This document shows, one piece after another, positions 2,946 through 34,329 of a stretch of DNA of 58,245 nt. The translations under genes were made by a program, and so were the position numbers. The notes beneath the pieces were generated by a model. The model did no database searches. It was given only the letters and a program-made list of their open reading frames with translations, and had not been told where the DNA came from. Position 1 is the stretch's first letter. Each line of letters begins with the position of its first letter. The DNA is from a virus. Its lineage: Duplodnaviria; Caudoviricetes. The stretch covers positions 1 to 58,245 of the IMG/VR virus record IMGVR_UViG_3300022868_000022. One strand, written 5' to 3'.

Positions 2946-3251
2946 TTAAATTATTTTTATTAAACTGGATTTATCGAAAAAATCTTTGTGGGTGTTGTAC
3001 CATTTGTTAAGTTTAGGAAGGTATAATTTGCTTATTTTATCGAAGGTTTCATCTTCTTTAATTTCTTCTGTATCTGTATGCATATCAAATGCTAAAATTA
3101 TATTAAGAATATTATTTCTTTGTTGTTCTGTTAATGTTTCTGGATCAAATGATACTATAAGATCAACAATTTTTTTAAAAATCTTTTTGTCAAATCCTAC
3201 CTTAGTGCCTGGTGGTATGCCATATTCTGTTATATAATTTTTAAATCTCAT
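2946..3251 (-). CDS. Putative internal head protein (capsid-targeting leader)
   Basis: Starts MRFKNYITE. Confidence 0.65.
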   Translation of the reverse strand: MRFKNYITEYGIPPGTKVGFDKKIFKKIVDLIVSFDPETLTEQQRNNILNIILAFDMHTDTEEIKEDETFDKISKLYLPKLNKWYNTHKDFFDKSSLIKII

Positions 3252-3272
3252 AATTACCTGATATACTTATAT

Positions 3273-3662
3273 TTAATGGTACTTTACGATTTTCCGACCC
3301 GTAGCAGTTTTCCCAGATTTAGCCATTCTATTTGTCATTCTTGACCGTTGCTTACCTGCAGCACTTCTTTTAAATCTGGATTTCTTTCTTTTTATAGCTG
3401 ATTTATGAGTTCTGTAATATCGTTTAGTCTGCATTCGTTTTTGTGACTTGGTTCTTTGAGCTAGTCTAATCTCATGCATATCAATATCATCAAAATCAAG
3501 CTCATCATATATAGATTCAAGCATCATACGTTGTTCATCTGACATCATATCTTCTTGCTCATTAGTCAAAGATATTAAGAAATCAGCCATCTTACTAAAT
3601 GTCTCATCGTCATAGTCTTCATCACCATCAATATAATTGTCAATTTGTTCTAATATGCTCAT
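3273..3662 (-). CDS. Acidic-N/basic-C putative prohead core or DNA-binding head protein
   Basis: D/E-rich first half, K/R-rich second half after MHE (possible protease site). Confidence 0.5.
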   Translation of the reverse strand: MSILEQIDNYIDGDEDYDDETFSKMADFLISLTNEQEDMMSDEQRMMLESIYDELDFDDIDMHEIRLAQRTKSQKRMQTKRYYRTHKSAIKRKKSRFKRSAAGKQRSRMTNRMAKSGKTATGRKIVKYH

Positions 3663-3664
3663 AG

Positions 3665-4030
3665 TTAATCCTTTATACCAGCTTCTTCTTCCATCTTTTT
3701 AAGTCTAGTATAGTAATCTTTTATTTCTGCCAAATGGTCTTTAGCTATACGCTCAGCAATAACAGGGCTTGAAGTATGCTCTTTTTCAATATCTATACCT
3801 AAACTCAATTCATTGTCATCATATGTTCCTTTAAAGTCTTTAGACCTACCTGATCCAAAGAATGAACCTAATAATTTATATATTACTTCTTCAAATTTAT
3901 GCTTATTTATCCCTAATTCATCAGCTAGATTATGAATTTCATCATCTTTTGGATTAGAATTTTTTAAGAAAAATTCTATTATATCGGCTGTAACATCCTT
4001 TTCTTCATTCAAATACTCATAAAATTTCAT
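3665..4030 (-). CDS. DUF5661-like protein with capsid-targeting leader
   Basis: MKFYEYLNE; GIDIEKEHT...A.RIAKDHL.E..DYYTRLKKME. Confidence 0.7.
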   Translation of the reverse strand: MKFYEYLNEEKDVTADIIEFFLKNSNPKDDEIHNLADELGINKHKFEEVIYKLLGSFFGSGRSKDFKGTYDDNELSLGIDIEKEHTSSPVIAERIAKDHLAEIKDYYTRLKKMEEEAGIKD

Positions 4031-4037
4031 ATAACAC

Positions 4038-4331
4038 CTATTTTAAGCTTAATCTCTTTCTTAATTCATTCTTAATAAATAGCATATCAGGCCCTTTAAG
4101 ACCTTTATTTTCAATTTCATAGATAATGATATTATATTTTTCTCTATTAGAAATATCCTTTTCTCTTTGTTGATCTACAGCACTTTTATCAATCTCTTTT
4201 AAATAAATTGAAATTAAAAAATTGATAATCTTTTTGTCAATCTTTTTCTTAATAGCATCTTTAATACCACTTTCCATAATAATATCTTTATCTTCCAAAT
4301 ACCTGGCTATTTTATTTTCAATGCCTATCAT
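4038..4331 (-). CDS. Hypothetical protein (long-type leader)
   Basis: MIGIENKIARYLE...IME. Confidence 0.6.
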   Translation of the reverse strand: MIGIENKIARYLEDKDIIMESGIKDAIKKKIDKKIINFLISIYLKEIDKSAVDQQREKDISNREKYNIIIYEIENKGLKGPDMLFIKNELRKRLSLK

Positions 4332-4332
4332 A

Positions 4333-4518
4333 TTAATCCTTGTCTTTAGTCCATTCTTTTTCGATCTGATTAAAAAATTCTTTTTTCTTATCGGCTGAAA
4401 GTTTTGCAGGTGATGTTACATTAAATTCTTTAAGTTTTTTCTTAAAAAACTTTTGATAAGCTGTTTCCTCTGTTAATGTACCCATAGTTAAATCTATTTT
4501 ATCAATAATATCATTCAT
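4333..4518 (-). CDS. Small T4-like-phage hypothetical protein
   Basis: LTE then YQKFF...L....V.SP..L....KKEFF..I...W; AGGAG RBS. Confidence 0.6.
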   Translation of the reverse strand: MNDIIDKIDLTMGTLTEETAYQKFFKKKLKEFNVTSPAKLSADKKKEFFNQIEKEWTKDKD

Positions 4519-4552
4519 TATACGATCTCCTTTATTTTATTTATCACATTGA

Positions 4553-4585
4553 TATTTATATTTTTATTGCTATTATTTATAAATA
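4553..4585. promoter_or_regulatory. Divergent late promoters: TATAAATA on - (4553-4560, 4574-4581) and + (4578-4585)
   Basis: Exact consensus copies at the strand switch. Confidence 0.75.
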
Positions 4586-4595
4586 ATATTAAATT

Positions 4596-5227: not shown

Positions 5228-5899
5228 ATGAGACTTAAAAATTATTTAACGGAATTAGCATCTAATTATGGCAAAGGAATCACAATGGTTGATATTGATG
5301 AAACATTGTTTAACACGTTTGCTAAAATTAAAGTAATTAAAAATGGTAAAGTAATTAAAGAGCTTGATAATCAAGAGTTTAATACATATGAACTTAAACC
5401 AAATGAATCATTTAATTTTGATGAATTTAGAAGTGCTGAAATATTTAATAAGACATCAATACCAATTCCCCAAACAGTTAATAGAATAAAAAGAATGATT
5501 AAGAACATTAAAGACAGAGGGTCCAAAATAGTATTTTTAACAGCTCGTGCAGATTTTGATGATAAAGAAGTATTTTTAAATACATTTCGTAAACATGGTA
5601 TACCAATAGATCAAATATATGTAGAAAGATCTGGTAATGATATAACAGGTACAGTTTCACAAAGGAAAAAGAAAATAGTATTAAGGTATCTTTTATCAGG
5701 TATGTATAGACGTTGTAGGCTCATAGATGATGATTTAAAAAATCTTAAAGATTTTTTATCAATAGAGAATGAATTACCACAAAATATAATAAATAAGATT
5801 AAAGAAATACATCATATATCTGATGATGAAACAATACCTGTTATAGAATTTTTTGCTTTGTTAGTAAAAAAAGACGGGTCATTAAAAAGAATTAAATAA
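5228..5899 (+). CDS. HAD-family phosphatase (Pnkp 3'-phosphatase/Swiss-army-knife-like) with capsid-targeting leader
   Basis: MRLKNYLTE; DIDETL, LTAR, K, IDDD..NL HAD motifs I-IV. Confidence 0.8.
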   Translation: MRLKNYLTELASNYGKGITMVDIDETLFNTFAKIKVIKNGKVIKELDNQEFNTYELKPNESFNFDEFRSAEIFNKTSIPIPQTVNRIKRMIKNIKDRGSKIVFLTARADFDDKEVFLNTFRKHGIPIDQIYVERSGNDITGTVSQRKKKIVLRYLLSGMYRRCRLIDDDLKNLKDFLSIENELPQNIINKIKEIHHISDDETIPVIEFFALLVKKDGSLKRIK

Positions 5900-5915
5900 A
5901 TAGGATAAGGATCTC

Positions 5916-6194: not shown

Positions 6195-6195
6195 T

Positions 6196-6714
6196 ATGAG
6201 ACTTGAGCAATATTTAAATGAATCTAAATCAATTATTTTTGTTCGTTATGGTGGATTATCAAAAATAGATCAAAAGAAATATGGTATTAGCCAGAATTTT
6301 CATAAAGCTCCAGCCAATAAAGGTATATTTGCTTTTACATGGCCTTATATTGAAGATTTTTTATGGGCATGGAAAGTGCCATTTAAAAAAGGTGAAACAG
6401 AAGATGAACAAAATAAAAGATTAAAAAAATTTATAAAAAATAATAGAAAAAAATTTACATATTCTGGATGGATATGGACACATTTTGAAAATGTTCCAAA
6501 TAATATGATAAAAAGAAGAAGTGGTTCATGGATTGAGATACATACAAGTGATTTTCAAAAATTATTCAAAAAACAAAAACATACAGATATGAAAGGATTG
6601 GATAAAAATCTTTATGGAATATCAAAAGATATTGTAAAAGACCCTTATAAAAGAGGTCTTGGTGGATTTATAAGTCGTGATCATTTAGAAGTATTTATTG
6701 AAAAAATAAATTAA
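6196..6714 (+). CDS. Putative internal head protein
   Basis: MRLEQYLNE leader, nucleotide-identical to that of 6722. Confidence 0.7.
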   Translation: MRLEQYLNESKSIIFVRYGGLSKIDQKKYGISQNFHKAPANKGIFAFTWPYIEDFLWAWKVPFKKGETEDEQNKRLKKFIKNNRKKFTYSGWIWTHFENVPNNMIKRRSGSWIEIHTSDFQKLFKKQKHTDMKGLDKNLYGISKDIVKDPYKRGLGGFISRDHLEVFIEKIN

Positions 6715-6721
6715 GGATAAT

Positions 6722-7270
6722 ATGAGACTTGAGCAATATTTAAATGAAGAAGTTATCAAATTAAGACATAGTTTTAAATTTGATAAGCTAAAAAAAGATA
6801 AGAAGTCTTTTTATAATGACCGTCAAATGGTTGGCCATGATAGAGCTATAGAAAGAGTAGATCAAATAGAAAATCTTTTTGCTAAAGTTACTAAAACAAG
6901 AAAGCAAAAAATGTTAGCATCATTGTTAATAGACTTTGACAGTACCGATTGGCATTATTTTGTAATACAAACATCAAAAAAAGATTTACAGATTTATAGC
7001 TACATATTAAGACGTATAGATAAAGTCATGCCATATAATTTATTAGCATGGCTTGATAACAAATCAGGGATATTAAAAACTCAATTAACTCATATATTAG
7101 AATATATGTCTTATTTAAGTAATGATAAAGCTTTATATCTTAAAAATTATTGTAAATCATTTAGTTTTTATGGTCTGAAATCAGATGAATCTGAAGAAAG
7201 ATTTAATAAATATCATAAAGGACTAGAAAAATATCCTTATATAAAATTTATAAAAAAGAATTGGAGATAG
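6722..7270 (+). CDS. Putative internal head protein
   Basis: MRLEQYLNE leader. Confidence 0.7.
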   Translation: MRLEQYLNEEVIKLRHSFKFDKLKKDKKSFYNDRQMVGHDRAIERVDQIENLFAKVTKTRKQKMLASLLIDFDSTDWHYFVIQTSKKDLQIYSYILRRIDKVMPYNLLAWLDNKSGILKTQLTHILEYMSYLSNDKALYLKNYCKSFSFYGLKSDESEERFNKYHKGLEKYPYIKFIKKNWR

Positions 7271-7271
7271 C

Positions 7272-7639
7272 ATGCGATTTAAACAATATATAACAGAACA
7301 GATGGTGTCATTATTTAATGTAAAAGTTGCTGGTGATATTAAAAAAAAGACTTATTAAAAAATATTAAAGCTCCTTTTGTAAATGTTAAGATTTCTACAT
7401 TGGGTGGTGATGATAGGACTTCTATAATATTAAATTTATCTCTTGATGATAAAAAAGATTGGCCAAATGGTATATTACAAAATTCAAGATATGCAATGTT
7501 TCATATTAATGCTGATGGTGTAATAGAACAGTTTACTAAATCATTTTCAATAAAAAAGAAATTTAGAAAATCAAAATTTAAGAATATATCAGATATAACT
7601 AAAAAAATTAATAAATATTTACAAACTATAAAAGGATAA
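7272..7639 (+). pseudogene. Leader-bearing gene interrupted by a -1 frameshift at an A8 tract (7341-7348)
   Basis: MRFKQYITE...DIKKKTY* (stop 7356-7358); the -1 frame continues KKDLLKNIKAPFVNVKISTLGGDDR... to 7639. Confidence 0.7.
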
Positions 7640-7641
7640 CT

Positions 7642-8736
7642 ATGAGATTTAAAAGATATTTAATATTTAAAGCTTCAAAAAATGCTTCAAAAACAACCAG
7701 ATTACAGGAATGTTTACATTGTATTGGTCTAGGTATATATCAAATTAAAAAGAAAGCAATTACTATACAAGATATACAAGATGAGGCTCTTTTTAGAAAG
7801 GCGTTTGATAGATATGTTGATATTGATACTGGATACAATGAGTTATATAAATTTGTATTAGACAATCCTAATAAATGGGTTGAAGCTGTTGTAAGATCTA
7901 CAAATGCTTTAAAAAAATCAAAATGGATGAAGAAAAATAATTATACTTTTTATAGAGGTGTGTCCTTTATGAATATAATATATAATGAATTCAATAAATT
8001 AAAGAAAAGAGATAACATTAGTCTTGCTAATGACAAATGGAATCCTTCAGATATATGGGCATCATCTAAAACATCTATACCATCATTCGATTCATTAATT
8101 GAATTAAATCAATACATATCAAAAAGTTTAAAAAGTGGTGCTGTTGTTGGTATATCATTAAAAAAATCAACTTCTTCACCTGTTGTTGAGTGGTATGGAC
8201 CTGATGAAAACCCAGAGATAATAAAATATAAAGGAATAAGTAAACCAAAAGGAAAAAATGCTCCATTTCCTACAGGTATAATAATAAATACATCAAAAGC
8301 TAATATAAATTTCAGAAGTTTTAGAATTATTAAAGCTGCTCCAATAACAGGAGAAATTATAGGTGGTGGTAAAGCTGCTCGTGGTGGTAAAGTGCCATCA
8401 AGTATTAAAAAAGATGTAATTGATAAATATAAAATATCACAAATGAGTAAAAGTCGTATATCATCAATAGATGACAATAAATTAAAAGAATATGTTTCTA
8501 GTTTATGGAAACAATGTGGCCATAATTTTTCAGAAAATGATATAGCTAAGGGATGGTCTGATAGAGAGAAAAATATTCAAGATCGTACAGGATATTGGAT
8601 GTCAATAATAAATTCATTAGAAATAGGATCTTTTCTTAATCAAAACAAAAGCTTAGCTGATAATATTATAACAAAGTTTTATACAGGATCATCATCAAAA
8701 GGAAGTAATTCATCAGAATTTATAAAAGTATCATAG
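7642..8736 (+). CDS. PD-(D/E)XK restriction-endonuclease-like protein with leader variant
   Basis: TRLQE, DKWNPSDIW, VGISLKK motifs; starts MRFKRYLI. Confidence 0.65.
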   Translation: MRFKRYLIFKASKNASKTTRLQECLHCIGLGIYQIKKKAITIQDIQDEALFRKAFDRYVDIDTGYNELYKFVLDNPNKWVEAVVRSTNALKKSKWMKKNNYTFYRGVSFMNIIYNEFNKLKKRDNISLANDKWNPSDIWASSKTSIPSFDSLIELNQYISKSLKSGAVVGISLKKSTSSPVVEWYGPDENPEIIKYKGISKPKGKNAPFPTGIIINTSKANINFRSFRIIKAAPITGEIIGGGKAARGGKVPSSIKKDVIDKYKISQMSKSRISSIDDNKLKEYVSSLWKQCGHNFSENDIAKGWSDREKNIQDRTGYWMSIINSLEIGSFLNQNKSLADNIITKFYTGSSSKGSNSSEFIKVS

Positions 8737-8746
8737 AGGAGATTAT

Positions 8747-9115
8747 ATGAAAATAACAAAAATAATAGCTAAGTACTTGAATGAATCTAGTATTTTAAAA
8801 TCAAATATAAAGAAAAAAATTAATGGTGAAATACAGAAATTCTTAAAACCAACGTACTTTAAAAAGATACCATTACAACCTTTATTTGATATACTTGAAA
8901 AATATAGCATTGTACCATTACAAGAAGATGATACTATATGGGATGGTCTTCTTCTTGGTGGTATAAAAAAGACAGAAAGAGTTGATTTTACTCTAGGTGA
9001 TTTATCATCAAAAGATAGTAAAAATAGATACCTTGTAATAACGAATGCTAAGCTTTCATTGTCATATTATAAAATGGAATCAGGCAAATATGAAGTTATT
9101 GCTTATATAGGATAA
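8747..9115 (+). CDS. Putative internal head protein
   Basis: MKITKIIAKYLNE; C-terminal YKMESGKYEVIAYI. Confidence 0.65.
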   Translation: MKITKIIAKYLNESSILKSNIKKKINGEIQKFLKPTYFKKIPLQPLFDILEKYSIVPLQEDDTIWDGLLLGGIKKTERVDFTLGDLSSKDSKNRYLVITNAKLSLSYYKMESGKYEVIAYIG

Positions 9116-9116
9116 T

Positions 9117-9272
9117 ATGAAATTTAAACAATATATAGAATCAATAGTAGCCGGCGACGTAGAATCCGAACCAGTTAAGAATGGTAAGATATTAAGACGA
9201 AAGAAAAAGAAAAAGAAATCTGAGATTGAAAAAATATTAGATAAAGCAAGAGGTATGAGTGATGAAATTTAA
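9117..9272 (+). CDS. Small basic leader-bearing protein (51 aa)
   Basis: Manual translation MKFKQYIESIVAGDVESEPVKNGKILRRKKKKKKSEIEKILDKARGMSDEI. Confidence 0.6.
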   Translation: MKFKQYIESIVAGDVESEPVKNGKILRRKKKKKKSEIEKILDKARGMSDEI

Positions 9273-9308: not shown

Positions 9309-9349
9309 AAGAAATATCTGAAGCTATATAATAAAAAAGAGGAGTTAAT

Positions 9350-9610
9350 ATGAGATTTGAAAAATATTTAACAGAAAAGGATATTAAAACAACACCAATA
9401 GAAAATGCTATTATAAAGGGTATAGAACGATATGGATTTTTTTTTGATGAAAAGACAAAAAAATCTTTAGAGTTTATATCAAATGGTGGAAGTACATATG
9501 ATCAAGCTAAAAAAGCTATATCTAAAATAAAATCAGCATATAAAGAGATTAAAAAGACTAACATTACAGAAGTTGAAGATGAATATGTTATAGAAATAAT
9601 ATTAAAATAA
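9350..9610 (+). CDS. Putative internal head protein
   Basis: MRFEKYLTE; AGGAG RBS. Confidence 0.65.
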   Translation: MRFEKYLTEKDIKTTPIENAIIKGIERYGFFFDEKTKKSLEFISNGGSTYDQAKKAISKIKSAYKEIKKTNITEVEDEYVIEIILK

Positions 9611-9621: not shown

Positions 9622-11052
9622 ATGAATATAATAGAAAAATTAGAACAGTATAGTACTGATAAACTTGATGAATCAGGTATAAGAAACATGAAAAAATGGG
9701 CAAAGACTTTTAATAAAGCTGTATGCTATTATCATCAAGATACTGATGGTGTTACATCTGCAATATGCATGAAAGCTTACTTAGAACAGTATAAAATAAA
9801 GACTGTAGATTGTCATATGATACAATATGGAGGTTTAGAATTTGCAGTACAAGCACCACAAAAGGGTATGCTAGTTTATGCGGTTGATTTTGCTCATGCT
9901 AAACCTATATTTCAAATATGGACCGATCATCATGATTCTGAACATATAGGAGCAACAAAAGATATGTCAGTATCTTTTATTAAATCACCAGCTAATGTAT
10001 CACATATATCAATGACTATATCACCTAGAGATATATTTCCATCAAGAGATATACAAATTATATCAACAGTTGATTCAGCCGATTTTGCATCACAAGATTT
10101 AACTCCTGATGATATTATGAGAGCAGCATTTAAAGTAGATAAAAAAATATCAATAGAGAAAAATCATAAAGCAATGGGTCTTGTTGTTAATAAATTGCTT
10201 CTTTCTTATAAAAATAAAAAAGGATTTCTTGATAAATTAGTAATGACAGCTAAACCATCTCTTATATCAATATATACTACAATAGTCAATTTAGCTAAAA
10301 AAGAGGGGTACAATCCTCCTGAAGAAATAGAAAGAAATCAAGCAGCATATAACGCACAACAAAAAGGAAAATCAAAAGTAGGCAAATTAAGCGATATAAA
10401 GAATATTAAATGTGGTGAGTCTATTGAAGTAGGTAACACAGTTTGCCAATACGGTGGTGGTGCAATGGGAAAAGGTAAGCAATACGACAGGTATACAGTA
10501 TTTAAAAATCACCCTACAGTGGACTTCCTTTGCATAGGATGGCCTATGGGATTAATTCAAGCTTCTAAAAATCCATTTAAAGGCGGAGATACGCCAGTTC
10601 ATTTAGGTAAACTTGTATTAGGTAAAGTAATGTTGAAATATAAAAGTGCACTATCTAAAGATATTAATTTATCATATCTAAAAAGAACTTATGAATCTGA
10701 TATACTTAAAAAAGGTTTAGTTGGTTCTATAGGATATACATTTGATGACCTTATTAATTCATTTACTAATGATCAAATAAAAGGAATTGATTTAGAGAAG
10801 ACAGGTAAATGGAAGGATATTATAAAAGATATTACTAATAAACAATATAAAGATCTTAGTTTCAAACAAAAGAAAATATTAGATACAATAAGTATTAGTG
10901 CATGGGATATTGTTATGAGTCAGAGCGGTGGCCACAAGGCAATAACTAATGTGACTAATTTAAATTTTCTTGGTAAAGGTTATACAGATATAATGAAAAA
11001 AATTATGACGGATATAGTAACTGAATTACAGAAGTATAAATTAGAGGGTTAA
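9622..11052 (+). CDS. DHH/DHHA1 phosphoesterase
   Basis: HQDTDG.SA, VDFA, TDHH, SGGHKA motifs; leader-like MNIIEKLEQY..KLDE. Confidence 0.82.
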   Translation: MNIIEKLEQYSTDKLDESGIRNMKKWAKTFNKAVCYYHQDTDGVTSAICMKAYLEQYKIKTVDCHMIQYGGLEFAVQAPQKGMLVYAVDFAHAKPIFQIWTDHHDSEHIGATKDMSVSFIKSPANVSHISMTISPRDIFPSRDIQIISTVDSADFASQDLTPDDIMRAAFKVDKKISIEKNHKAMGLVVNKLLLSYKNKKGFLDKLVMTAKPSLISIYTTIVNLAKKEGYNPPEEIERNQAAYNAQQKGKSKVGKLSDIKNIKCGESIEVGNTVCQYGGGAMGKGKQYDRYTVFKNHPTVDFLCIGWPMGLIQASKNPFKGGDTPVHLGKLVLGKVMLKYKSALSKDINLSYLKRTYESDILKKGLVGSIGYTFDDLINSFTNDQIKGIDLEKTGKWKDIIKDITNKQYKDLSFKQKKILDTISISAWDIVMSQSGGHKAITNVTNLNFLGKGYTDIMKKIMTDIVTELQKYKLEG

Positions 11053-11079: not shown

Positions 11080-11379
11080 ATGAGATTTAAAAAATATATA
11101 AATGAAAGTTCTTCAACAGTATATACTGAAAAGGTTAAGAAAAGTGATCTATCAAACGCTGATTGGAAAAAATTAGATAAATATGGTAACTTTGATGAAT
11201 CACTTCCATTTTTGATTAAGATACTTAAAAAGAAAGGATATACATATAAAGGTAAAACACCTGGTAAATATAGTTCAGAGTATTGGACAAAAAAAGGAGA
11301 GAAGTGGAGAAATACTGGTGATTTTGAATTATATGATGGTGGTTTTATAGATATGGAATTAATATTAATGCATAATTGA
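11080..11379 (+). CDS. Putative internal head protein
   Basis: MRFKKYINE; GAGGTG RBS. Confidence 0.65.
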   Translation: MRFKKYINESSSTVYTEKVKKSDLSNADWKKLDKYGNFDESLPFLIKILKKKGYTYKGKTPGKYSSEYWTKKGEKWRNTGDFELYDGGFIDMELILMHN

Positions 11380-11398: not shown

Positions 11399-11593
11399 AT
11401 GAACATAACAGATAAGATAACAGACTATTTGAATGAAAATAAAATTGATGATTTTGTTAATAAATTTAAAAATAAAATGGGCAAAGATACCACAGAACAA
11501 ACAGCAAAAGGTTGGGTTGATGGTATAGGTGAATTAAGTAAATCAGATAAAAAGAAATTATTAGGTAAAATTTTAAATTATATAGAGGCTTAA
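11399..11593 (+). CDS. Putative internal head protein
   Basis: Start after GGAG gives MNITDKITDYLNE. Confidence 0.6.
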   Translation: MNITDKITDYLNENKIDDFVNKFKNKMGKDTTEQTAKGWVDGIGELSKSDKKKLLGKILNYIEA

Positions 11594-11599: not shown

Positions 11600-11815
11600 A
11601 TGAAAATAAAAGAAACTACAAATAAATATTTAACAGAAAAACTAAAAGCAAGAAGTAGTAAATCAAATAAAATAGAAGATAAAGTTTATGATATGCTGTC
11701 TGGATCAGATTTTGAGAGATGGTATCCAAAAGATTATATAGACCATATAGAAGGAGCTCCTAAAGCTAAATCAAGAGATGATATCATCTCTGATATTAAA
11801 ACTATGTTGAGATAA
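11600..11815 (+). CDS. Putative internal head protein
   Basis: MKIKETTNKYLTE. Confidence 0.6.
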   Translation: MKIKETTNKYLTEKLKARSSKSNKIEDKVYDMLSGSDFERWYPKDYIDHIEGAPKAKSRDDIISDIKTMLR

Positions 11816-11820: not shown

Positions 11821-12282
11821 ATGAGATTTAAAAAACTAATAGAAGCTACTATAACTAAAGGATATCCAGATACAGGTGGTATAGCAAGTGATGATGACTA
11901 TCCACCAGGAAATATTATTATTGGTCCTAAATATAAAAAGATTTATGTAGAACAGCCAAAAACAGGTGTTAAAATTGTTAAATATATTGAAGTTGATGAT
12001 TTTATGTGGGATGAATTTGATGGATGTGTTGGTATGCATAGAATGTCTAATTATGACAAGACTTTATTAACAATGATTCCTGTATATGGTGATAGAATGT
12101 TTAAGCATATGAGATGGACTGATACTAAAGGATTTGATACCGATCCTGAAAATATAGCACGAAAAAAAATTAGTCATGTTGATCAAAGAAGGGGTTTTGG
12201 TAGAAATGATGTAAATAAAAAAGAATACAAGACTACAAAAGCTAAAGATATAACTGAAATGGTTGATAAATATATAAAATAA
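11821..12282 (+). CDS. Putative internal head protein
   Basis: MRFKKLIE. Confidence 0.6.
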   Translation: MRFKKLIEATITKGYPDTGGIASDDDYPPGNIIIGPKYKKIYVEQPKTGVKIVKYIEVDDFMWDEFDGCVGMHRMSNYDKTLLTMIPVYGDRMFKHMRWTDTKGFDTDPENIARKKISHVDQRRGFGRNDVNKKEYKTTKAKDITEMVDKYIK

Positions 12283-12285: not shown

Positions 12286-12882
12286 ATGGTAATTTATAAA
12301 GTAACAAATAAAATAAATGGCAAATGTTATATTGGTCAAACAATATTAACAATTAATAAAAGAAAATCTGGGCATATTTATAAAAGTTTGAAAAAAAGTG
12401 ATAATTGTTATTTTCATAAAGCTATTAGAAAATATGGTAAAGATAATTTTTTATGGGAAATTATTTGTGAATGTAAAACTAAAAAAGAATTAAATGAAAA
12501 AGAAATTTATTATATAAAACAACAAAAATCATATGTTAAAGAAAATGGTTATAATTTAACTCATGGTGGTGAAGATAATCCAATGAATTATCAAAAATAT
12601 AGAGATAAAATTTCAAAAGCAAATAGTGGTGAATTAAATCCATTTTTTGGTAAAAAACATACACAAAAAACAATAAATAAAATTAAATCTTTTACTCAAA
12701 GTGATAATCATCCATCTATTAAGAAATGGATTTTAAAACATAAAGATGGCAGATCTTTAATTATTGAAAATCTAGAAAAATTTTGTAGAGAAAATAAATA
12801 TTATTCTGGAAATTTTAGAAATGTTAAAAGTGGTAAATATAAACAATATAGAGGATGGTATTTTTGTGATAATGTATCATAA
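12286..12882 (+). mobile_element. Free-standing GIY-YIG homing endonuclease with NUMOD3 motif
   Basis: VIYKVTNKINGKCYIGQT...R...H...AIRKYG..NF...E..YI...GYN...GG; NPFFGKKHT. Confidence 0.9.
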
Positions 12883-12888: not shown

Positions 12889-13719
12889 ATGAGACTTGAA
12901 AATTACTTAAATGAAAATAATATAAAAGATTGGACCGGATATATTAATAATAATAAGATGTTAAAATCCGCTGTAAAAGTATTACAGACTATTAATAAGA
13001 AAGGTTTTAAATGTTATATTGTAGGTGGATGTGTTAGAGATATTGTGTTAGGTATTCAGCCACATGATATTGATATATGTACTAATATGCCTATGGATAG
13101 AATAAGTAAATTATATAAAACTCATGATATAGGCAAATCAAAACAGTTTGGCATAGTCGTTATTAAGCAAGGGTCTTATAATTTTGAGATTGCGCAATTT
13201 CGCCAAGACGGCACATACAAAGATGGTAGACGACCTGATACTGTAAAAATATCAAGCTCTTTTAAAGATGATGCTAAAAGGAGAGATTTTCAAATTAATG
13301 CAATGGCAATTGATAAAGATGGTAATATTATTGATTATTTTAATGGTAAAAAAGATATTAAAAACAAAGTGTTAAAAACTGTAGGTGATCCTAATAAAAG
13401 ATTTGGCGAAGATTATTTAAGGATGTTAAGAGCAGCTCGTTTTTCAGCTAAATTGGATTTTGATATAGAACCAAAAACAAAGAAAGCTATTAAGAAATCT
13501 TCATATCGTATTCAAGATTTATCACCTGAAAGAATTAAAGATGAAATAATGAAAGCAGCATCTCAGTCAGGAGATGTCTTTGCTAAGTACCTAAATACAT
13601 TAGATGAATTGAATTTACTAAAATATATATTTCCAGAAATTATGAACTTAAAATGGTTTAAAGAAAATATGAAACATCATCCTGAAACATCTGGTTATGT
13701 AAGAAGAATTATAGAATGA
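12889..13719 (+). CDS. cca: CCA-adding enzyme/poly(A) polymerase family nucleotidyltransferase, N-terminal half, with leader
   Basis: VGGCVRD, DIDI, EIAQFR, DAKRRDFQINAMA, RFGEDYLRMLRAARF, SPERI.DE; ends HHPE+10 aa. Confidence 0.9.
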   Translation: MRLENYLNENNIKDWTGYINNNKMLKSAVKVLQTINKKGFKCYIVGGCVRDIVLGIQPHDIDICTNMPMDRISKLYKTHDIGKSKQFGIVVIKQGSYNFEIAQFRQDGTYKDGRRPDTVKISSSFKDDAKRRDFQINAMAIDKDGNIIDYFNGKKDIKNKVLKTVGDPNKRFGEDYLRMLRAARFSAKLDFDIEPKTKKAIKKSSYRIQDLSPERIKDEIMKAASQSGDVFAKYLNTLDELNLLKYIFPEIMNLKWFKENMKHHPETSGYVRRIIE

Positions 13720-14468
13720 GATTAATGAACTTTATAAATGAGCAATTAATAGCAGCAAGAAATAAATATGCTGAAGGGAAAAAATTAGGTGAATTAGAAA
13801 AATATGATCGTAATAATCCTGAACATGATGATCCTAAAAAATATTTGTATTTTTCAACAGGAGCTACAGTATATTCACATACCATAGAAGCAATAAAGCA
13901 AGTTAAGATTGATCAGCCATTACAAATGTTAGCTACTGCATTACATGATACAGGTAAAGGTGTTACTCTTAGTGATAAAAAAGGTTTACCTACATATTAT
14001 GGCCATGCTAAAGAGAGTATTGAATTAGTTAATAGCATAGCTGATAGATTAAAAATGAGTAATAAAGAAAGAAATGCTTTGTTGTTTGCTGTAGGCAATC
14101 ATATGAAATTTCATAATATTCTTGGTATGAAAACAAGCAAGATAGTCAAACTTGTTAATGATGATAATTGGGATGTTTTAGTAGCTGTATCTTTCGCAGA
14201 TAGTGCATCAAGAGGTTCTTCATTTATACATGCTGGTGAATTTGAAAAAATAGTTGATAAGTGTATAAAATTAAAAGATAAATACAATATAAAAGAAGTT
14301 AAAAAAAGATTAAAGCTTGTTGATGGTAATCGTGTTATGGAGTTATTAGGATTAAAACCCGGACCTAAAGTTGGCAAAATAATTAAAGAAATATCAGCAT
14401 GGGTTATTGATAATGATATAAAAGATACAAAATTAATAGATGAGAGGATATTAGAATATGAGACTTAA
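13716..14468 (+). CDS. CCA-adding enzyme C-terminal half (HD domain + tail) with its own leader
   Basis: MRLMNFINE; VYSHT, LHDTGKG, YYGHA, NHM, AD, LVDG..VM.LLGLKPGP.VG. Confidence 0.85.
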   Translation: MRLMNFINEQLIAARNKYAEGKKLGELEKYDRNNPEHDDPKKYLYFSTGATVYSHTIEAIKQVKIDQPLQMLATALHDTGKGVTLSDKKGLPTYYGHAKESIELVNSIADRLKMSNKERNALLFAVGNHMKFHNILGMKTSKIVKLVNDDNWDVLVAVSFADSASRGSSFIHAGEFEKIVDKCIKLKDKYNIKEVKKRLKLVDGNRVMELLGLKPGPKVGKIIKEISAWVIDNDIKDTKLIDERILEYET

Positions 14469-15234
14469 ACAATACTTAAATGAAAGTTATACTGCTGAAG
14501 AAGTGGTTGAAATAATTAAAAAAGATTGTCCTAGATCTTATATAGTACAAACTAAAGGAGAATTTTTTTATCGTGGAACTAAAGATTCAATAAATGATAT
14601 CAAAAAATTTAAATCAAGAACTGATAGAATACCAAAAGATACACCTCCTGAATTACATAACATGTTAGATAGTTTGTTTAAAAGGTATCTTGGATGGCAT
14701 GCTAGAAGTGAAGGAACATTCGTTAATGGAAAAAAAGATAATATTAGTGGATATGGTATATCATTTATGTTTTTTCCTATAGGCAAATATGATTTTGTGT
14801 GGTCGCCTAGTATAGAAGATTTATATTCTAAAATAGAACAAAATTATATGTTAGAAGAACCTGAATATTTATTTATAAGTGATTATGATTATGATTATGA
14901 ATATAATGAAGAATCTGGAAATGGAAAATATGAATATGAAGGTATATTATATAATAATATCAATGATATAGAAGATACTAAAAATATAACAGGTAATAAT
15001 ATAGAAAATGATGCTGTATGGATACCTAACATGACATTTGAAGAATATAGAGAAAAATCTATAGATGATTATGAAAACAATAGAGATACTTATTTACATG
15101 ACTTAATTAAAACATATAGTAAAACAAATCTTAATAAAGCAATGAAATCAGGACATGAAGTTATGTTTAGATGTAAAGAATACTATATGGTTGATGCAAA
15201 ATTCAGTAAAATTTTAAGAAAGGAATTATGGTAA
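14458..15234 (+). CDS. Leader-bearing protein, possible ADP-ribosyltransferase fold; paralogue of 16020..16679
   Basis: MRLKQYLNE; FFYRG, DR.P.DT, ARSEG.F, FFP, WS..I.DLY, GHEVMF. Confidence 0.55.
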   Translation: MRLKQYLNESYTAEEVVEIIKKDCPRSYIVQTKGEFFYRGTKDSINDIKKFKSRTDRIPKDTPPELHNMLDSLFKRYLGWHARSEGTFVNGKKDNISGYGISFMFFPIGKYDFVWSPSIEDLYSKIEQNYMLEEPEYLFISDYDYDYEYNEESGNGKYEYEGILYNNINDIEDTKNITGNNIENDAVWIPNMTFEEYREKSIDDYENNRDTYLHDLIKTYSKTNLNKAMKSGHEVMFRCKEYYMVDAKFSKILRKELW

Positions 15235-27870: not shown

Positions 27871-27874
27871 TTAT

Positions 27875-29479
27875 ATGAGATTTATCAAATACTTACAAGA
27901 AGCATTAACTTTAAAGCAAGTCAAAGAAATCAAACCTGCTATACTGTCTAAAAAATATAAGACATATCTTAATAAAGTCTTTAAAGGTGAAGACAGGATA
28001 TACCTTGATTTTGATGCTAATAAAGAAGACATTAAACCTCCTAAGGCTATAGATAATTTTATTAAATCTAATAAGTTAAAGATTGTTAATTATAAGAAAG
28101 GTATTGTACAGTCGGGTAAAAAAATATTAAGACTTGGTAAAGTGTTGTCTAAAAATAAAGAACAAGATCTATTAAAAGTATTTATTAATGACAAGAGAAG
28201 AACTAGTGGTAAGAAAACTGATTTGCTTATAGTTATATCCAGACATCCATATGATTTAGCTGGCATGAGTACTGACCGTGGATGGACAAGTTGTATGGAC
28301 TTACAAGGTGGTATGTTTCAAAAATATATACATAAAGATATAAAATACGGTACTTTAGTAGCGTATATTATTAATACAAATGATAAAAATATTAATAAGC
28401 CTATAGGAAGGATTCTTATAAAACAATTTATAAATATAGATAATGAAAAGGATATGGTACTTTATCCAGAGAAAAAAGTTTATGGATCTGATGTCTCTGG
28501 ATTTAGAAAAAGAATTATAGCATGGCTTAAGACTTTTCAGAAGTTTAAAGGTACATATGAAATAAATCCTGAATTATATGTTGATACAGGGACAAATGTT
28601 ATAGGTTTAGGTTATAAAGATAGCTCTGACTTTAAAATAAGGGGATTATATTATCAAAATAATCCAGATGATAAAGATGCTAAAAAAGAATTTATTGATA
28701 TTATAAGAAAACAATATTATCAAAATCATCCAAATGACCCTGATGCTAAAACAGATAATGATTATGGTATTAAAAAAAGATATTATGATAACCATCCTGA
28801 AGATAAAGATGCTAAAACAGATGAATATCAAAGTATAAGAATGGAATATTATAAAAAACATCCTGAAGATAAAGATGCTAAAACAGATGAATATCAAAGT
28901 ATAAGAATGGAATATTATAAAAAACATCCTGAAGATAAAGATGCTAAAAAAGATAGTGATAATGATGTAAGAAGGATATATTATGACCATCATCCGAATG
29001 ATAAAGATGCAATAAAAGACGTTGATAGTGAAATAAGAATAACATATTATAAACATAATCCTAATGATCCTAATGCTAAAATAAATGACAATGTAAATAT
29101 AAGAAAGGCATATTATTTAAAAAATCAAGATGATAAGGATGCTAAAAAAGATAAAAGTCTTCATATAAGAAGATTTTATTATGACAATCATCCGAATGAT
29201 AAAGATGCTAAAACAGATGAATATCAAAGTATAAGAATGGAATATTATGAAAATCATCCGAATGATAAAGATGCTATGAAAGATCCTGGTAATATTGTAA
29301 GAAAACAATATTATCATAATAACCCTGAAGATAAAAATGCTAAGAAAGATGATAATACTCGCATAAGAGAATTATATTATTATAATCATCCGAATGATAA
29401 GGATGCTATGAAAGATGATTGGCATTATATAAGAAAACAATATTATGAAAATCATCCAGAAGAAGAAAAAAAGAAATAA
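27875..29479 (+). CDS. Leader-bearing protein with a globular N-domain and ~13 22-aa helical repeats
   Basis: MRFIKYLQE; ISRHPYD.AGMSTDRGWTSCM; (YYxNHPxDKDAKxDxxxxIRxx)n, with exact 66-nt copies at 28793 and 28859. Confidence 0.8.
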   Translation: MRFIKYLQEALTLKQVKEIKPAILSKKYKTYLNKVFKGEDRIYLDFDANKEDIKPPKAIDNFIKSNKLKIVNYKKGIVQSGKKILRLGKVLSKNKEQDLLKVFINDKRRTSGKKTDLLIVISRHPYDLAGMSTDRGWTSCMDLQGGMFQKYIHKDIKYGTLVAYIINTNDKNINKPIGRILIKQFINIDNEKDMVLYPEKKVYGSDVSGFRKRIIAWLKTFQKFKGTYEINPELYVDTGTNVIGLGYKDSSDFKIRGLYYQNNPDDKDAKKEFIDIIRKQYYQNHPNDPDAKTDNDYGIKKRYYDNHPEDKDAKTDEYQSIRMEYYKKHPEDKDAKTDEYQSIRMEYYKKHPEDKDAKKDSDNDVRRIYYDHHPNDKDAIKDVDSEIRITYYKHNPNDPNAKINDNVNIRKAYYLKNQDDKDAKKDKSLHIRRFYYDNHPNDKDAKTDEYQSIRMEYYENHPNDKDAMKDPGNIVRKQYYHNNPEDKNAKKDDNTRIRELYYYNHPNDKDAMKDDWHYIRKQYYENHPEEEKKK

Positions 29480-29488
29480 GGAGTACAA

Positions 29489-31177: not shown

Positions 31178-33336
31178 TGAGTAAATTTATTGATATACCA
31201 TATTTTATAATGGAAGATTTTATAGATGTTATTAAACCATATGAATATGATTACCCAACAACAGGCCATCTTACAGGTCCTAAAACTGGAATAACAGCAA
31301 AGTATGGTTTTGGTCTTGATTTATGGATTAAAGATAAACAAGATGATAATATACCTGCAGCTACTAATAAATATGGTTATTATAAAATTAGAGGAATACC
31401 TATAAGTGGTACACCAACAGATAACATTTATCAATTTCATCTTGAAACTACTAATTATAGACCATCAATATTAACTGTAGATGAATTAGCATTATATGCT
31501 GGATATGATGTTTATTTTATAAAAAAAGAGCATCAAATTCGTGAATTTATTAATAATACATCTGAATATGAAGATTATGTTAATATTAATAAGATATTTT
31601 TATATTTTGGTAAATTATATCCTTTAAGCGATGGAAGTGGTAAATTTAATATAGTATGTAATAATTTTAATAATAATGCTTTAAAAGCTCTTCCTATAGG
31701 TAATAGAACAACTAATCTTAAACAATTATTTAGCTTATTTTTTGATAAGATATATAGTAAATGTTATAATTTGTCAAAAAATACATGGTCTATGGTTGAT
31801 CCAGATGAAGTTCCTGAAAAATATCTTGAATATATTTATGATATTTATGATATGAATTATTTAAGTGATTTGGATATTTTAGATAGAAGATCATATGCTG
31901 CTGCATTACCAGATTTACTTAAAAGAAAAGGAACATATTCATCATTATATATTGTTTTTAGATCTGTTATACCCTTTACATCTAATTATCTTAATGTATA
32001 TGAAAGATGGCATGATGTGTCAATAACAGAAAATATAAATGATAATTTTGAAGATCATTTATATACTTCTTATCCTGATTATGGATCAGCAACATTAAGT
32101 GCCGGAGCTGGTGCTGAATATTATGAATCATTTGGAACATATCCTGATATTGCAAGTAAAGTAATATCACCACATTATAGAACTGAAATAGATTTAAATA
32201 ATGAATCTTATGGTAATGACTATATTTTTAATGAAGATTTATCAGATCGTCTTGTAGCTGCATGGGAAGAAATAAGACCTGTATGTAAATATGCTCATTA
32301 TTCATTACTTTTATCACCAATATCAGATTTTACAGGGTCTTTTATAGCTCTTTATGATACTGGAGCTACAGTTGATACTAAATGTTGTAAACCAATAACA
32401 ATATTGGATGATAAAGTATTATATAGACGAGAAGGTGCTAGTATATCATGGGATGTTATACATAATCTTGATAGTAAAAATGTTGTAGTTCAATTTTTTA
32501 GCTTAGATTTAGAACAAATTATACCATCTAATATTGAATATTTAACAATGAATTCAATAAAAGTTACATTTGGATATGCTACATCTGGTCTTGCAGTAAT
32601 AACTTTACCAGATTATACACATACTCAATCTAGTGGTGCTTCAGCATGGTCTATAACACATTCATTAGCAGATAATTTTCCATTAATACAAATTGAAGAT
32701 TTAACAGATAGTCATTTCTTTCCATTAAATATAACATCTGATGATGCTAATAATATGACTGTAACATTTATAGAAGATACTACAGGATATGGTATTGTTG
32801 CTTCTGGTGAATACACACATACTCAATCATCTGCAAGTACTTTATGGACTGTTGAGCATGATTTAGATGCTTATGCTGTTCAAGTACAGTGTTATAATTC
32901 TAGTAATGAATTAATGTATCCAGCTACTGTAACTATAACAACAAATAATATAGTAACATTAACATTTTTTACAGCCGAAGCAGGTCATGCTGTAATAAAA
33001 GCTATTAGTAAAAGTGCATTTAGTATGTCTTCTATAACAGAAAATATTAGTTACGCTAAAGTCGGCACATCTGGTAGTAATGCATGGGATGCTATAACTA
33101 ATAATGACTTAGAATCACCTGTAGGAACATATACATATACAGCGACATTAACTTCAGATGATAATTATTATTATGTTGAATCTAATATAAATACAGCAGA
33201 AGATATGGATATAACGGAAATTGGTATATTTGATACTTCTGATGACATAATATTCTATACATTTAATAACTTACTATTTAAAAAATCAACTATTGATCTT
33301 AAATTATGGTATAGAATAGAAAGAAAATCTAATTAA
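31177..33336 (+). CDS. Baseplate wedge/tail protein (gp7/P2 gpI-like) with W-x-I-x-H-x-L repeats
   Basis: DPD.VP.KYL, L.KRKGT, IRPV; WDVIHNL/WSITHSL/WTVEHDL; ITEIGIF. Confidence 0.7.
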   Translation: MSKFIDIPYFIMEDFIDVIKPYEYDYPTTGHLTGPKTGITAKYGFGLDLWIKDKQDDNIPAATNKYGYYKIRGIPISGTPTDNIYQFHLETTNYRPSILTVDELALYAGYDVYFIKKEHQIREFINNTSEYEDYVNINKIFLYFGKLYPLSDGSGKFNIVCNNFNNNALKALPIGNRTTNLKQLFSLFFDKIYSKCYNLSKNTWSMVDPDEVPEKYLEYIYDIYDMNYLSDLDILDRRSYAAALPDLLKRKGTYSSLYIVFRSVIPFTSNYLNVYERWHDVSITENINDNFEDHLYTSYPDYGSATLSAGAGAEYYESFGTYPDIASKVISPHYRTEIDLNNESYGNDYIFNEDLSDRLVAAWEEIRPVCKYAHYSLLLSPISDFTGSFIALYDTGATVDTKCCKPITILDDKVLYRREGASISWDVIHNLDSKNVVVQFFSLDLEQIIPSNIEYLTMNSIKVTFGYATSGLAVITLPDYTHTQSSGASAWSITHSLADNFPLIQIEDLTDSHFFPLNITSDDANNMTVTFIEDTTGYGIVASGEYTHTQSSASTLWTVEHDLDAYAVQVQCYNSSNELMYPATVTITTNNIVTLTFFTAEAGHAVIKAISKSAFSMSSITENISYAKVGTSGSNAWDAITNNDLESPVGTYTYTATLTSDDNYYYVESNINTAEDMDITEIGIFDTSDDIIFYTFNNLLFKKSTIDLKLWYRIERKSN

Positions 33337-33350
33337 ACAAGGAGCATATA

Positions 33351-33965
33351 ATGTCAAGAGCACATTATTGGAGTTATTTATTAAATGAAGAAGGACAGCC
33401 TGTTGATGCAGCTAATATAACAATATATTTAGCTACTACATCTACTGCTGCTTATGTTTTTAGTGTTGAAAGTGGTGGTATAGCATCAAATACAGCACCA
33501 CAAACAACAACAAATGATGAAGGATTTTTTGAGTTTTGGATAGGAGCATCTAATGAAATTAATGGATATGATGCTGGTCAAAAATTCAAAATCACATGGT
33601 CAAGTCCTGGTACAATAAGTGATGGTGAAATAGATAATATGGAAATATTAACTGTTCCAGGTGAAGTAGATGAAACTGATACAGATACCTTAAAAAATAA
33701 ATTTGTTAGTAATTTACTAGCAAAAGGATGGTCTGCTAAAACAGATACCCTGACATCAGCTATAGCATCTGCTAGTTGGCAAGTTTCTGGAGGTGATAAT
33801 TATTATGAATTAACTCATAATCTTAATAATAGCTATCCTTTGGTAATGTTATACAATGATGCTGACAATAAAACTGATACCATAGAAGTTGAAACATTAA
33901 CAATTAATTCAGTAAGATTATGGAAGACCGATACTCCAACATGTCATGTTACAGTGATAGGATAA
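33351..33965 (+). CDS. Fibre/adaptor protein sharing its N-domain with the collagen-like protein
   Basis: ITIYLATTSTAAYVF..SGGIA...APQ...GFFEFW vs VTIYLTGTTDAAKVY..TGGIA..APQ...GLFQFY. Confidence 0.65.
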   Translation: MSRAHYWSYLLNEEGQPVDAANITIYLATTSTAAYVFSVESGGIASNTAPQTTTNDEGFFEFWIGASNEINGYDAGQKFKITWSSPGTISDGEIDNMEILTVPGEVDETDTDTLKNKFVSNLLAKGWSAKTDTLTSAIASASWQVSGGDNYYELTHNLNNSYPLVMLYNDADNKTDTIEVETLTINSVRLWKTDTPTCHVTVIG

Positions 33966-33975
33966 GAGGTATAAT

Positions 33976-34329
33976 ATGAGATTTTTAAAATATTTATCAT
34001 ACTCAGGACTAGATGAGAATACTAATAAATTTAGAATATTACGAATCAATCTTGTTAATGATAACACATGTTATAAAGACATAATACAAGAGACATGCAA
34101 AAAATATGATATAGATTCTAATAAAATATATGGTATATTGAACAGTCTTAATGATGATTTTAAAAATATTTATAAAGGTAAATTTAGATTTGAATTTTGT
34201 CTTGAAGAAGGTACTACTATAGATAATATTAAGATAAATAAAAAATATGTTAAGAGATTTAAGATTATGTTATTTGAAGCTAACAATAAATTAGCTAAAA
34301 TAAAAAAATGTGTAGAAAAGATAATATAA
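33976..34329 (+). CDS. Hypothetical protein with leader variant
   Basis: MRFLKYLSYSGLDE. Confidence 0.6.
   Translation: MRFLKYLSYSGLDENTNKFRILRINLVNDNTCYKDIIQETCKKYDIDSNKIYGILNSLNDDFKNIYKGKFRFEFCLEEGTTIDNIKINKKYVKRFKIMLFEANNKLAKIKKCVEKII

Follow-up and report, generated by a model that had tools for sequence, protein, structure and literature searches.

Unrelated genes of an uncultured T4-like phage share a short N-terminal leader, probably a capsid targeting signal

Leader-bearing genes of the window

The DNA analyzed here is the whole of IMG/VR virus record IMGVR_UViG_3300022868_000022 (58,245 bases, linear class, ~24% complete, 24–33% G+C), and this entire stretch is called the window below. 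Judged by its genes, it comes from a T4-like myovirus. Between positions 2946 and 34329, numerous open reading frames (ORFs) whose products are otherwise unrelated start with similar short peptides, here termed leaders. The class A leader is nine residues long and fits the pattern M[RK][FL]xx[YF][LI]xE; the class B leader is a 13-residue form that ends in YLxE. An initial annotation had proposed that ~25 genes carry such leaders and that these leaders act like the capsid targeting sequence of phage T4, tagging a large, partly enzymatic protein cargo for delivery with the DNA. The leader is probably a targeting and processing signal of this kind; the robust part of the tagged set is smaller than proposed. 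Genes are named below by the position at which the leader starts, with a minus sign for the complementary strand.

The leftward (minus strand) operon is led by a gene with a loose, long leader, MNDIIDKIDLTMGTLTE, that has LTE at residues 15–17 (4333..4518; 61 residues; phrog_28651). A second loose long leader, MIGIENKIARYLEDKDIIME, with IME at residues 18–20, heads the next protein (4038..4331; 97 residues), and is followed by class A leader MKFYEYLNE on a 121-residue DUF5661 protein (3665..4030; Pfam PF18905, E 2e-13). A loose leader-like start, MSILEQIDNYIDGDE, comes next (3273..3662; 129 residues); the protein at the same position in a relative, contig G001, begins MSILDRIDEHLNE. The last is a 101-residue protein with class A leader MRFKNYITE and no Pfam or PHROG match (2946..3251).

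All other leader genes lie on the plus strand. MRLKNYLTE (class A) begins a 223-residue HAD-type phosphatase (5228..5899; PF03767, E 4e-7) that falls in phrog_415, a polynucleotide kinase family. The two basic proteins that follow (6196..6714, 172 residues, no family; 6722..7270, 182 residues) both start with the class A leader MRLEQYLNE and have no detectable kinship past it. Class A leader MRFKQYITE heads a phrog_3308 protein (7272..7639) whose frame is broken in the window by a shift at an A-run, giving a 28-residue ORF and a second frame from 7400; contig L008 (18 kb, 98–99% identical) has an intact 121-residue version, and the shift probably reflects an error of sequencing or assembly, or else a mutation of recent origin. 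The 364-residue product of the next gene (7642..8736; phrog_1462) starts with a variant lacking Glu, MRFKRYLIF; its relative in contig L007 begins MRFKQYLNE. Then come class B leader MKITKIIAKYLNE (8747..9115; 122 residues), variant MKFKQYIES (9117..9272; 51 residues), class A leader MRFEKYLTE (9350..9610; 86 residues), and a long leader, MNIIEKLEQYSTDKLDE, with KLDE at residues 14–17, on a 476-residue DHH-family phosphoesterase (9622..11052; PF01368, E 2e-5, below Pfam's cut-off). At the place of window positions 9272–9350, L008 has ~3 kb of extra DNA (its positions 10534–13465) with three leaderless ORFs of 192, 361 and 350 residues.

Class A leader MRFKKYINE (11080..11379; 99 residues) precedes two class B leaders, MNITDKITDYLNE (11399..11593; 64 residues counted from an inner Met, the ORF itself starting at 11387) and MKIKETTNKYLTE (11600..11815; 71 residues), and a variant one residue shorter than class A, MRFKKLIE, with LIE at residues 6–8 (11821..12282; 153 residues). 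Inserted between this gene and the next leader gene is a GIY-YIG/NUMOD3 homing endonuclease gene (12286..12882, plus strand) that has no leader and is not a member of the set. Two class A genes encode the nucleotidyltransferase half of a CCA-adding enzyme (12889..13719; MRLENYLNE; 276 residues; phrog_2244) and the HD/C-terminal half of the same family (13716..14468; MRLMNFINE; 250 residues; phrog_2244, E 7e-12; PF13735, E 4e-6; HD, E 0.004). Two others, 14458 (14458..15234; MRLKQYLNE; 258 residues) and its paralogue 16020 (16020..16679; MRLKRYLKE; 219 residues), encode phrog_11975 proteins with a possible ADP-ribosyltransferase (ART) fold. The rest are a class B gene inside the tail module (MNIIKTIDKYLME; 20563..20925; 120 residues), a class A gene between gp25 and gp6 for a highly charged 534-residue protein of no family (MRFIKYLQE; 27875..29479), and a variant, MRFLKYLSYSGLDE, with LDE at residues 12–14 (33976..34329; 117 residues), which is the final leader gene before gp55. 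A protein atlas search with 7642 and 27875 returned viral clusters only, none of them with a family. The leader region is a place of gene gain and loss.

A six-frame search with the strict class A pattern gave 13 matches, which are the class A starts above and the same 13 that the initial annotation had listed. Omitting the Met from the pattern ([RK][FL]xx[YF][LI]xE) gave the identical 13 sites, all after a Met and none internal, and since an in-frame stop lies 0–12 codons before each site, every match is an ORF start. In 200 block shuffles preserving local composition, the Met-less pattern occurred 1.67 times on average (sd 1.35, maximum 6). With 13 of 13 real matches at ORF starts against 1.67 ± 1.35 in shuffled DNA, a chance origin of the motif is ruled out.

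The shorter pattern [YF][LIM]xE occurs 37 times in the 17,980 residues of the 95 ORFs taken as genes, and falls within the first 20 residues in 17 ORFs, namely the 13 class A genes and four class B genes (8747, 11399, 11600, 20563). All 17 of these robust leaders end in [LI]xE. They belong to 17 of the 43 ORFs within 2946–34329 and to 0 of the 52 elsewhere (Fisher p = 1.6e-7), which bears out the earlier statement that no leader occurs past 34.4 kb. Eight further starts are weaker or looser. Four are class A-like and had been named as near-variants; they exist, but none has Glu at residue 9: 7642 (YLIF), 9117 (YIES), 11821 (KLIE, ending at residue 8) and 33976 (YLSY, then GLDE at 14). The loosest are 4331-, 4518-, 3662- and 9622, so that of the longer class first described the four class B genes stand and 4331- and 9622 are looser forms. 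This leaves 17 robust cases, with ~25 as the upper bound. When the 25 proteins were compared by BLASTP without their first 15 residues, the sole pair with E < 0.01 was 14458/16020 (41% identity); at this level the proteins are indeed unrelated, apart from one paralogous pair among 25.

The initial annotation also placed all leader genes under TATAAATA late promoters, which holds for operons and not gene by gene: the motif occurs 29 times in the window against 34.7 expected, and most leader genes have no copy directly upstream. Its placement is more telling. Of the 25 matches in 1–46.5 kb, 11 are intergenic, in the sense orientation and just 5′ of an ORF, in a region whose intergenic DNA totals ~1.7 kb. 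Divergent sites at 4553-, 4574- and 4578+ (4553..4585, both strands) lie within the 77-nt gap 4519–4595 and are probably the late promoters of two leader-gene operons: the sites at 4553 and 4574 (minus) head the run from 4518 down to 2946, and those at 4578 and 5215 (plus) the run from 5228 to 11052. The site at 11056 (plus) heads the run from 11080 to 17180, and sites at 17195 and 17234 precede the sheath gene. G001 (38% G+C) has the motif 5′ of its tube, sheath, terminase, scaffold and portal genes, as well as 5′ of one leader gene. Together, these placements put the leader genes in probable late operons, without a promoter for each gene.

It is the leader peptide that is conserved, in hundreds of metagenomic homologues. 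Its codons vary at each constrained residue (AGA/CGA/AAA, TTT/CTT/TTA, TAT/TAC/TTT, TTA/TTG/ATA, GAA/GAG), the 60 bases 5′ of the 13 class A starts have only a ribosome-binding site in common, and the identical leader peptide heads ORFs in viral contigs of 24–40% G+C. These observations bear on the idea that selection acts on the nucleic acid, the peptide being functionless and the conserved stretch being a translation-initiation region or a short recombination cassette for gene shuffling. Mobile regulatory cassettes have been reported to mediate shuffling in T4-type phages (PMC2839356), and the neighboring genes 6196 and 6722 share their first 27 bases exactly. Against this, leader codons are synonymous rather than identical, also in Agrobacterium phage Atu_ph07 (see below), where CGT/AGA/AAA/AAG and CAA/CAG encode the same residues; upstream DNA is not kept; the peptide is retained across the above range of base composition; the YLxE core of class B stands at a different distance from the ATG; and Glu never changes to Asp, although GAT/GAC are one base from GAA/GAG. 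A DNA-level element was accordingly rejected, and we regard this explanation as highly improbable.

Likeness to the T4 tag and to head proteins of relatives

The T4 internal proteins carry the tag MKTYQEFIAE and are reported to be cut once beside it, and any protein fused to the tag is reported to be kept in the head (PMC8442874). In truncation and suppressor work, tag residues 4 and 7 were assigned to targeting and residues 8 and 10 to processing; Asp at residue 10 blocked cutting and left targeting unaffected, and the protease, gp21, is described as having a cleavage site near its own N-terminus (PMC9026906). T4 itself carries three such proteins; for T-even phages the reported number is at least ten, with only the leader in common (PMC12373910, PMC3012670). 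The class A leader has a hydrophobic residue at position 3, an aromatic one at 6, [LI] at 7 and Glu at 9; as far as sequence geometry goes, these offsets (0, +3, +4, +6) are those of T4 residues Y4, F7, I8 and E10. Of the 47 ORFs of the window and G001 that start M[RK][FL]xx[YF][LI]xX, 37 have Glu at the last position and none has Asp.

The likeness extends to organization. As in T4, where the propeptides have 10–19 residues, a short N-terminal peptide ending in [LI]xE stands on otherwise unrelated proteins encoded by probable late genes near head genes, and a Peptidase_S77 protease is present in the window's lineage. The differences are that the consensus is one residue shorter than in T4 and that there are at least two to three leader classes; that 17–25 genes are tagged in 31 kb of the window, and 35 in a 161-kb relative, compared with three T4 internal proteins; that the cargo, known here from its genes, includes enzymes of 220–530 residues and not just small inhibitor proteins; and that the mature parts match no named internal-protein family.

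Searching a viral collection with a degenerate DNA pattern of the leader gave nine loci; when the gp15-like protein alone was used to seek relatives, none were found. The relative G001, which holds one of the nine, is a 161.6-kb contig (~71% complete) whose sheath protein is 57% identical to that of the window. In G001, [YFW][LIM]xE ends at residues 8–17 in 35 of 279 ORFs, compared with 5.9 expected from the overall frequency of the motif, and in 23 of the 35 the motif ends exactly at residue 9. This contig encodes a gp21-type Peptidase_S77 protease (E 9e-29). Its gene has those for portal, scaffold and capsid protein as neighbors, and small ORFs with leaders are interspersed among these head genes, between protease and scaffold. 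The leader cluster of the window adjoins genes for a gp2-like DNA end protector (1191–1709, minus strand) and a gp4-like head completion protein (1789–2250, minus strand); those of G001 and of the low-GC relative L041 have the same layout.

The [LI]xE rule also holds for head proteins of the relatives. With the G001 capsid protein as query, 116 related stretches were retrieved and 80 of them retained; the 69 that matched from residue 1 were used and the 11 starting later were dropped. In the resulting 49 distinct N-termini, residue 14 is Leu or Ile in 49, residue 15 is of nine kinds, residue 16 is Glu in 48 and residue 17 is Gly in 49, as would be expected if a [LI]-x-Glu cleavage site were conserved there. 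The first 17 residues of the clade's capsid protein are strongly conserved as a whole (L6, K9, W10, [VI]13, [LI]14, E16, G17). The clade's protease starts MKLITE throughout, the scaffold proteins have KLDE at residues 14–17, and 67 ORFs in the loci of the capsid-protein relatives match Peptidase_S77. By eye, rather than by a statistical measure, the class B leader is similar to the capsid N-terminus (M-[DN]-I-x-x-L-[VL]-x-K-W-x-x-V-L-x-E), and the DHH protein (9622) starts much like the relatives' scaffold. Complex prediction for the relatives' gp21 protease with residues 1–60 of the 14458 family scored 0.00 and gives no verdict either way.

A signal unconnected with the capsid would be another way to account for the leader: a site for some other protease (in zymogen-like activation or timed turnover), a tag for docking to the tail or baseplate, or a chaperone tag. 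Genes 16020, 20563, 27875 and 33976 do lie within the tail and baseplate modules, and the evidence that puts the tagged proteins in the head is indirect. Most leader genes, however, adjoin gp2 and gp4 and not tail genes, the motif agrees with both the gp21 rule and the geometry of the T4 tag, and the [LI]xE rule is kept at the N-termini of the relatives' capsid, scaffold and protease. This leaves a non-capsid signal with a small probability.

Virion proteins with a similar leader are available from Atu_ph07. Among cultured phages, homologues of the phrog_11975 proteins 14458 and 16020 were found in jumbo phages only, chiefly Atu_ph07 (six places). In this phage, the proteins of a tandem array, gp54–gp63, start with peptides such as MRWEQLTE, MKWHQLTE, MRWHQLIE and MRLFQLLE, which are one residue shorter than class A and end in L-x-Glu. 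A degenerate DNA pattern for M[RK][WL]xQLxE matched 11 starts in the 490-kb genome and 0 in a reversed control; the 11 are gp54–63 and gp408 (regions 41844–50592 and 304780–305556). A Peptidase_S77 is also encoded (E 2e-22). All 11 proteins appear in the published table of virion proteins obtained by electrospray ionization tandem mass spectrometry, with 3–15 unique peptides and 12–47% coverage (Attai et al. 2018, Table S5, PMC6102473). That table has ~140 rows, for 714 annotated features, and gives peptide counts without N-terminal peptides; its molecular weights agree with the RefSeq gene numbers. The 11 are paralogues, ten of them adjacent, and so are not independent cases. The words 'N-terminal', 'prohead' and 'paralog' do not occur in the main text of the paper (PMC6102473). 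With an apparently unnoticed leader on 11 of its virion proteins, this cultured phage could serve for laboratory tests of the rule.

Predicted cargo and proposed role

Gene 12889 encodes the nucleotidyltransferase head and RNA-binding region of a class II CCA-adding enzyme (PF01743, E 4e-35; PF12627, E 4e-14; solved CCA enzymes, E 7e-52). Its homology to the solved enzymes begins at residue 22–26, aligned with residue 6 of 1miv_A. The C-terminal HD/body–tail region is not in the same polypeptide; it is encoded by the separate ORF 13716, with a leader of its own. The split falls at profile position ~220, with 12889 covering positions 2–226 and 13716 positions 216–387 of the 392 in phrog_2244. 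A leader on each half is what an address acting per polypeptide would require. Among the best 120 of 7,564 homologues of 12889 (E ≤ 1e-10), 97 have a class A start and 100 the core motif; the other 20 are mostly close variants, e.g. HLYE, and four begin just past the leader. In the same 120, the enzyme is full length in 114 and split in 6. Four full-length homologues have an extra leader-like motif internally. The tagged CCA enzyme is widespread in large uncultured phages: hundreds of metagenomic examples have 61–69% identity, some of them on contigs of 160–232 kb. A tblastn search of cultured phages gave only matches of <45% identity that start past the leader, and thus no close cultured relative with a tagged enzyme.

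Predicted folds do not include the leader. In an AlphaFold2 model of 12889 (36 homologues; mean predicted local distance difference test score, pLDDT, 72), residues 1–13 are below 50; in a model of 14458 (15 homologues; mean pLDDT 89), residues 1–8 are. Of the 15 homologues of 14458, ten start with the nine-residue leader, and in an eleventh it is shifted by a single position.

The two phrog_11975 proteins (E 1e-32) may have an ART fold. Residues conserved among the 15 homologues of 14458 include Y38-R39-G40 (R39 nearly invariant), R83 followed by S-E-G, and E234; the YRG, RSEG and E234 motifs could be an ART catalytic triad. VIA-align matches to the 14458 model are weak: the best, with Z 5.6 and below the tool's caution level, is a protein of unknown function, and the rows with Z 3–4.7 are mostly ARTs. 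Nearly all structure matches are to ARTs (PE-like toxin, Arr, cholix toxin, DarT, PARPs, OspC3). Foldseek gave no match at E ≤ 0.001 for this model (best E ≥ 0.025), Pfam gave no ART family for 14458 or 16020 at E ≤ 0.01, and a profile of the 15 homologues had 0 matches at E ≤ 5 among Protein Data Bank sequences. T4 Alt, an ADP-ribosyltransferase, is described as packaged in the head and trimmed by gp21, and may be a counterpart of 14458 and 16020 in view of their conserved motifs, their weak fold matches and their virion homologues in Atu_ph07; it differs in that the two window proteins match neither any ART family nor a solved structure in sequence. Alt, at ~70 kDa, is also far larger than either.

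Read from these matches, the likely cargo comprises both halves of a CCA enzyme, one HAD phosphatase, one DHH phosphoesterase, two proteins that may be ADP-ribosyltransferases, and ~15 more with neither an assigned function nor a family. The nucleotidyltransferase, HD, HAD and DHH domains foreseen by the initial annotation are matched in Pfam or PHROG by leader ORFs. The 'nuclease' it had listed is not supported, the sole clear nuclease of the region being the leaderless GIY-YIG enzyme, and its 'ART-like' label has weak fold matches (Z ≤ 5.6) and no sequence family behind it. Two RNA ligase genes (phrog_562 and phrog_548) lie at 54526–55560 and 57087–58004 (minus strand). Together with the tagged CCA enzyme and the phosphatase, which resembles that of polynucleotide kinase, these ligases suggest a tRNA repair theme.

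The size and content of the tagged proteins also bear on whether they are delivered at all. They might instead be assembly or scaffold parts that the leader directs to the prohead core, where the protease degrades them and the fragments are expelled. Most T4 core proteins are reported to meet this end (PMC8442874), the small leader proteins of G001 are encoded between protease and scaffold, and many of those in the window are small and of no known family. Such an origin is hard to reconcile with 17–25 unrelated proteins, at least six of which have intact enzyme domains or families (CCA, HD, HAD, DHH and, twice, phrog_11975), and with the persistence of the Atu_ph07 homologues in virions; we consider it unlikely.

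We therefore consider it about 75% probable that the leader signals targeting to the capsid and processing there, as in T4, and that its bearers are packaged in the head. The T4 spacing, the lack of Asp at the last position, the relatives' protease and the [LI]xE-G of their capsid proteins, the position of the leader outside the folds and the Atu_ph07 virion proteins all support the proposal of a T4-type leader cut after (I/L)xE on a larger, partly enzymatic cargo, with ~25 proteins as its upper limit.

Several points weigh against this. Glu is missing in several presumed members (7642, 9117, 33976). The overall TATAAATA count is not above chance in this AT-rich DNA and so proves nothing, its placement alone being informative. 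Genes for portal, head protease, scaffold and major capsid protein were sought in the 58,245 bases and none was found, so that the phage's own protease is inferred from relatives. The closest cultured phages are distant, with sheath proteins ≤43% identical (Stenotrophomonas phage DLP_6, Pelagibacter phages HTVC008M and Mosig, and the Sinorhizobium phage phiM12 group). No class A leader occurs at 30–80 kb of HTVC008M, a cultured Pelagibacter phage of the wider group, a stretch that includes the head module; the system is thus clade-specific and not general to cultured marine T4-like phages. With 16020, 20563 and 27875 inside tail and baseplate modules, gene position is no pointer to the head. 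Lastly, the Atu_ph07 evidence comes from one paralogous family with a somewhat different leader, and a virion preparation purified with polyethylene glycol shows neither head location nor cleavage.

If the leader is such a signal, the tagged proteins would be made late, and the leader would bind them to the scaffolding core as the prohead assembles. A gp21-type (Peptidase_S77) head protease would then cut after the Glu of [LI]xE, freeing the mature proteins inside the capsid, and these would leave with the DNA at the next infection. For this last part, ejection followed by host takeover or counter-defense, the odds seem slightly favorable, by analogy with the T4 internal proteins and Alt and in view of the enzymes present. 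The cargo suggests that RNA repair, removal of nucleotide signals and host modification could be ready on entry. The injected set would probably be much larger than that of T4, because ~20 unrelated, probably late proteins, several of them enzymes, bear one tag.

A bolder extension, which we hold to be possible and rather doubtful, is that across the clade the tag is a nine-codon address able to turn any late gene into injected cargo, giving an entry kit of 20–35 proteins per genome that acts before phage genes are expressed. Such a kit would contain CCA enzyme, HD, HAD and DHH phosphoesterases and ART-like proteins, for tRNA repair, removal of nucleotide alarms and modification of host proteins. 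On this view, class B leaders would copy the phage's capsid N-terminus and the KLDE type that of its scaffold, and cargo would enter the prohead as mimics of shell and core subunits.

Parallels exist outside the T4 group. The ejection and inner-body proteins of phiKZ and SPN3US are likewise described as dozens of proteins that are packaged in the head, processed by the prohead protease and ejected, with >50 head proteins given for SPN3US. The propeptides of giant phages are long, varied and cut at A/S/G-x-E, unlike one short common leader. An analogy, and no more, is the cargo-loading peptide of encapsulins, a short terminal peptide by which unrelated enzymes are loaded into an HK97-fold shell; it is C-terminal and uncleaved, and belongs to a cellular host system without injection.

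The principle is already known from T4. New here are the consensus, several leader classes echoing the N-termini of the clade's capsid and scaffold proteins, how many genes per genome are tagged, the presence of enzymes among their products, the separate tagging of two enzyme halves and the link to Atu_ph07. In the titles and abstract openings of the literature on capsid targeting, internal head proteins, virion proteomes, cyanophages and pelagimyophages, we found nothing that describes a T4-like phage with dozens of enzymes tagged in this way. Should the leader prove to be a packaging tag, one could tell directly from sequence which proteins uncultured T4-like phages inject, and in this clade the set would have ~10 times the diversity of T4's, enzymes included. 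It would then be testable what phages deliver besides DNA, and how defenses based on tRNA cleavage, nucleotide signaling and restriction are pre-empted. A second, naturally diverged set of packaging tags would also become available for loading foreign proteins into phage heads.

Other genes of the window

Other genes of the window also place it among the T4-like myoviruses. The tail genes are interleaved with leader genes and include the gp15 tail sheath stabilizer (15244–16023), tail sheath (17276–19009), tail tube (19067–19615) and baseplate hub and wedge proteins (19640–33336). They are followed by the late sigma factor gp55 (34375–34785), the gp47/gp46 nuclease (34791-, 39508-) and UvsX (43054–44163). 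A leftward block at 47–58 kb holds methyltransferase genes and the two RNA ligase genes. Searches for tRNA genes and Rfam families found none in the window.

Three further features were noted. On either side of the sheath gene are two paralogues of the gp19-family tail tube, of which that at 16680–17180 has a weak match to Pfam gp19 and a good one to phrog_45; the other is the tube gene at 19067–19615. Adjoining the gp2 and gp4 genes, an ORF that runs off the end of the window (1–690, minus strand) has collagen-like tail-fiber matches (phrog_5073 and others). Finally, tandem paralogues of 88 and 81 residues (2367–2633 and 2643–2888, minus strand), preceded by a TATAAATA at 2919, separate gp4 from the leader cluster; they match no family and carry no leader, and their first 22 residues are identical (MAQEYNRLEGYNLDKGSLSNVG).

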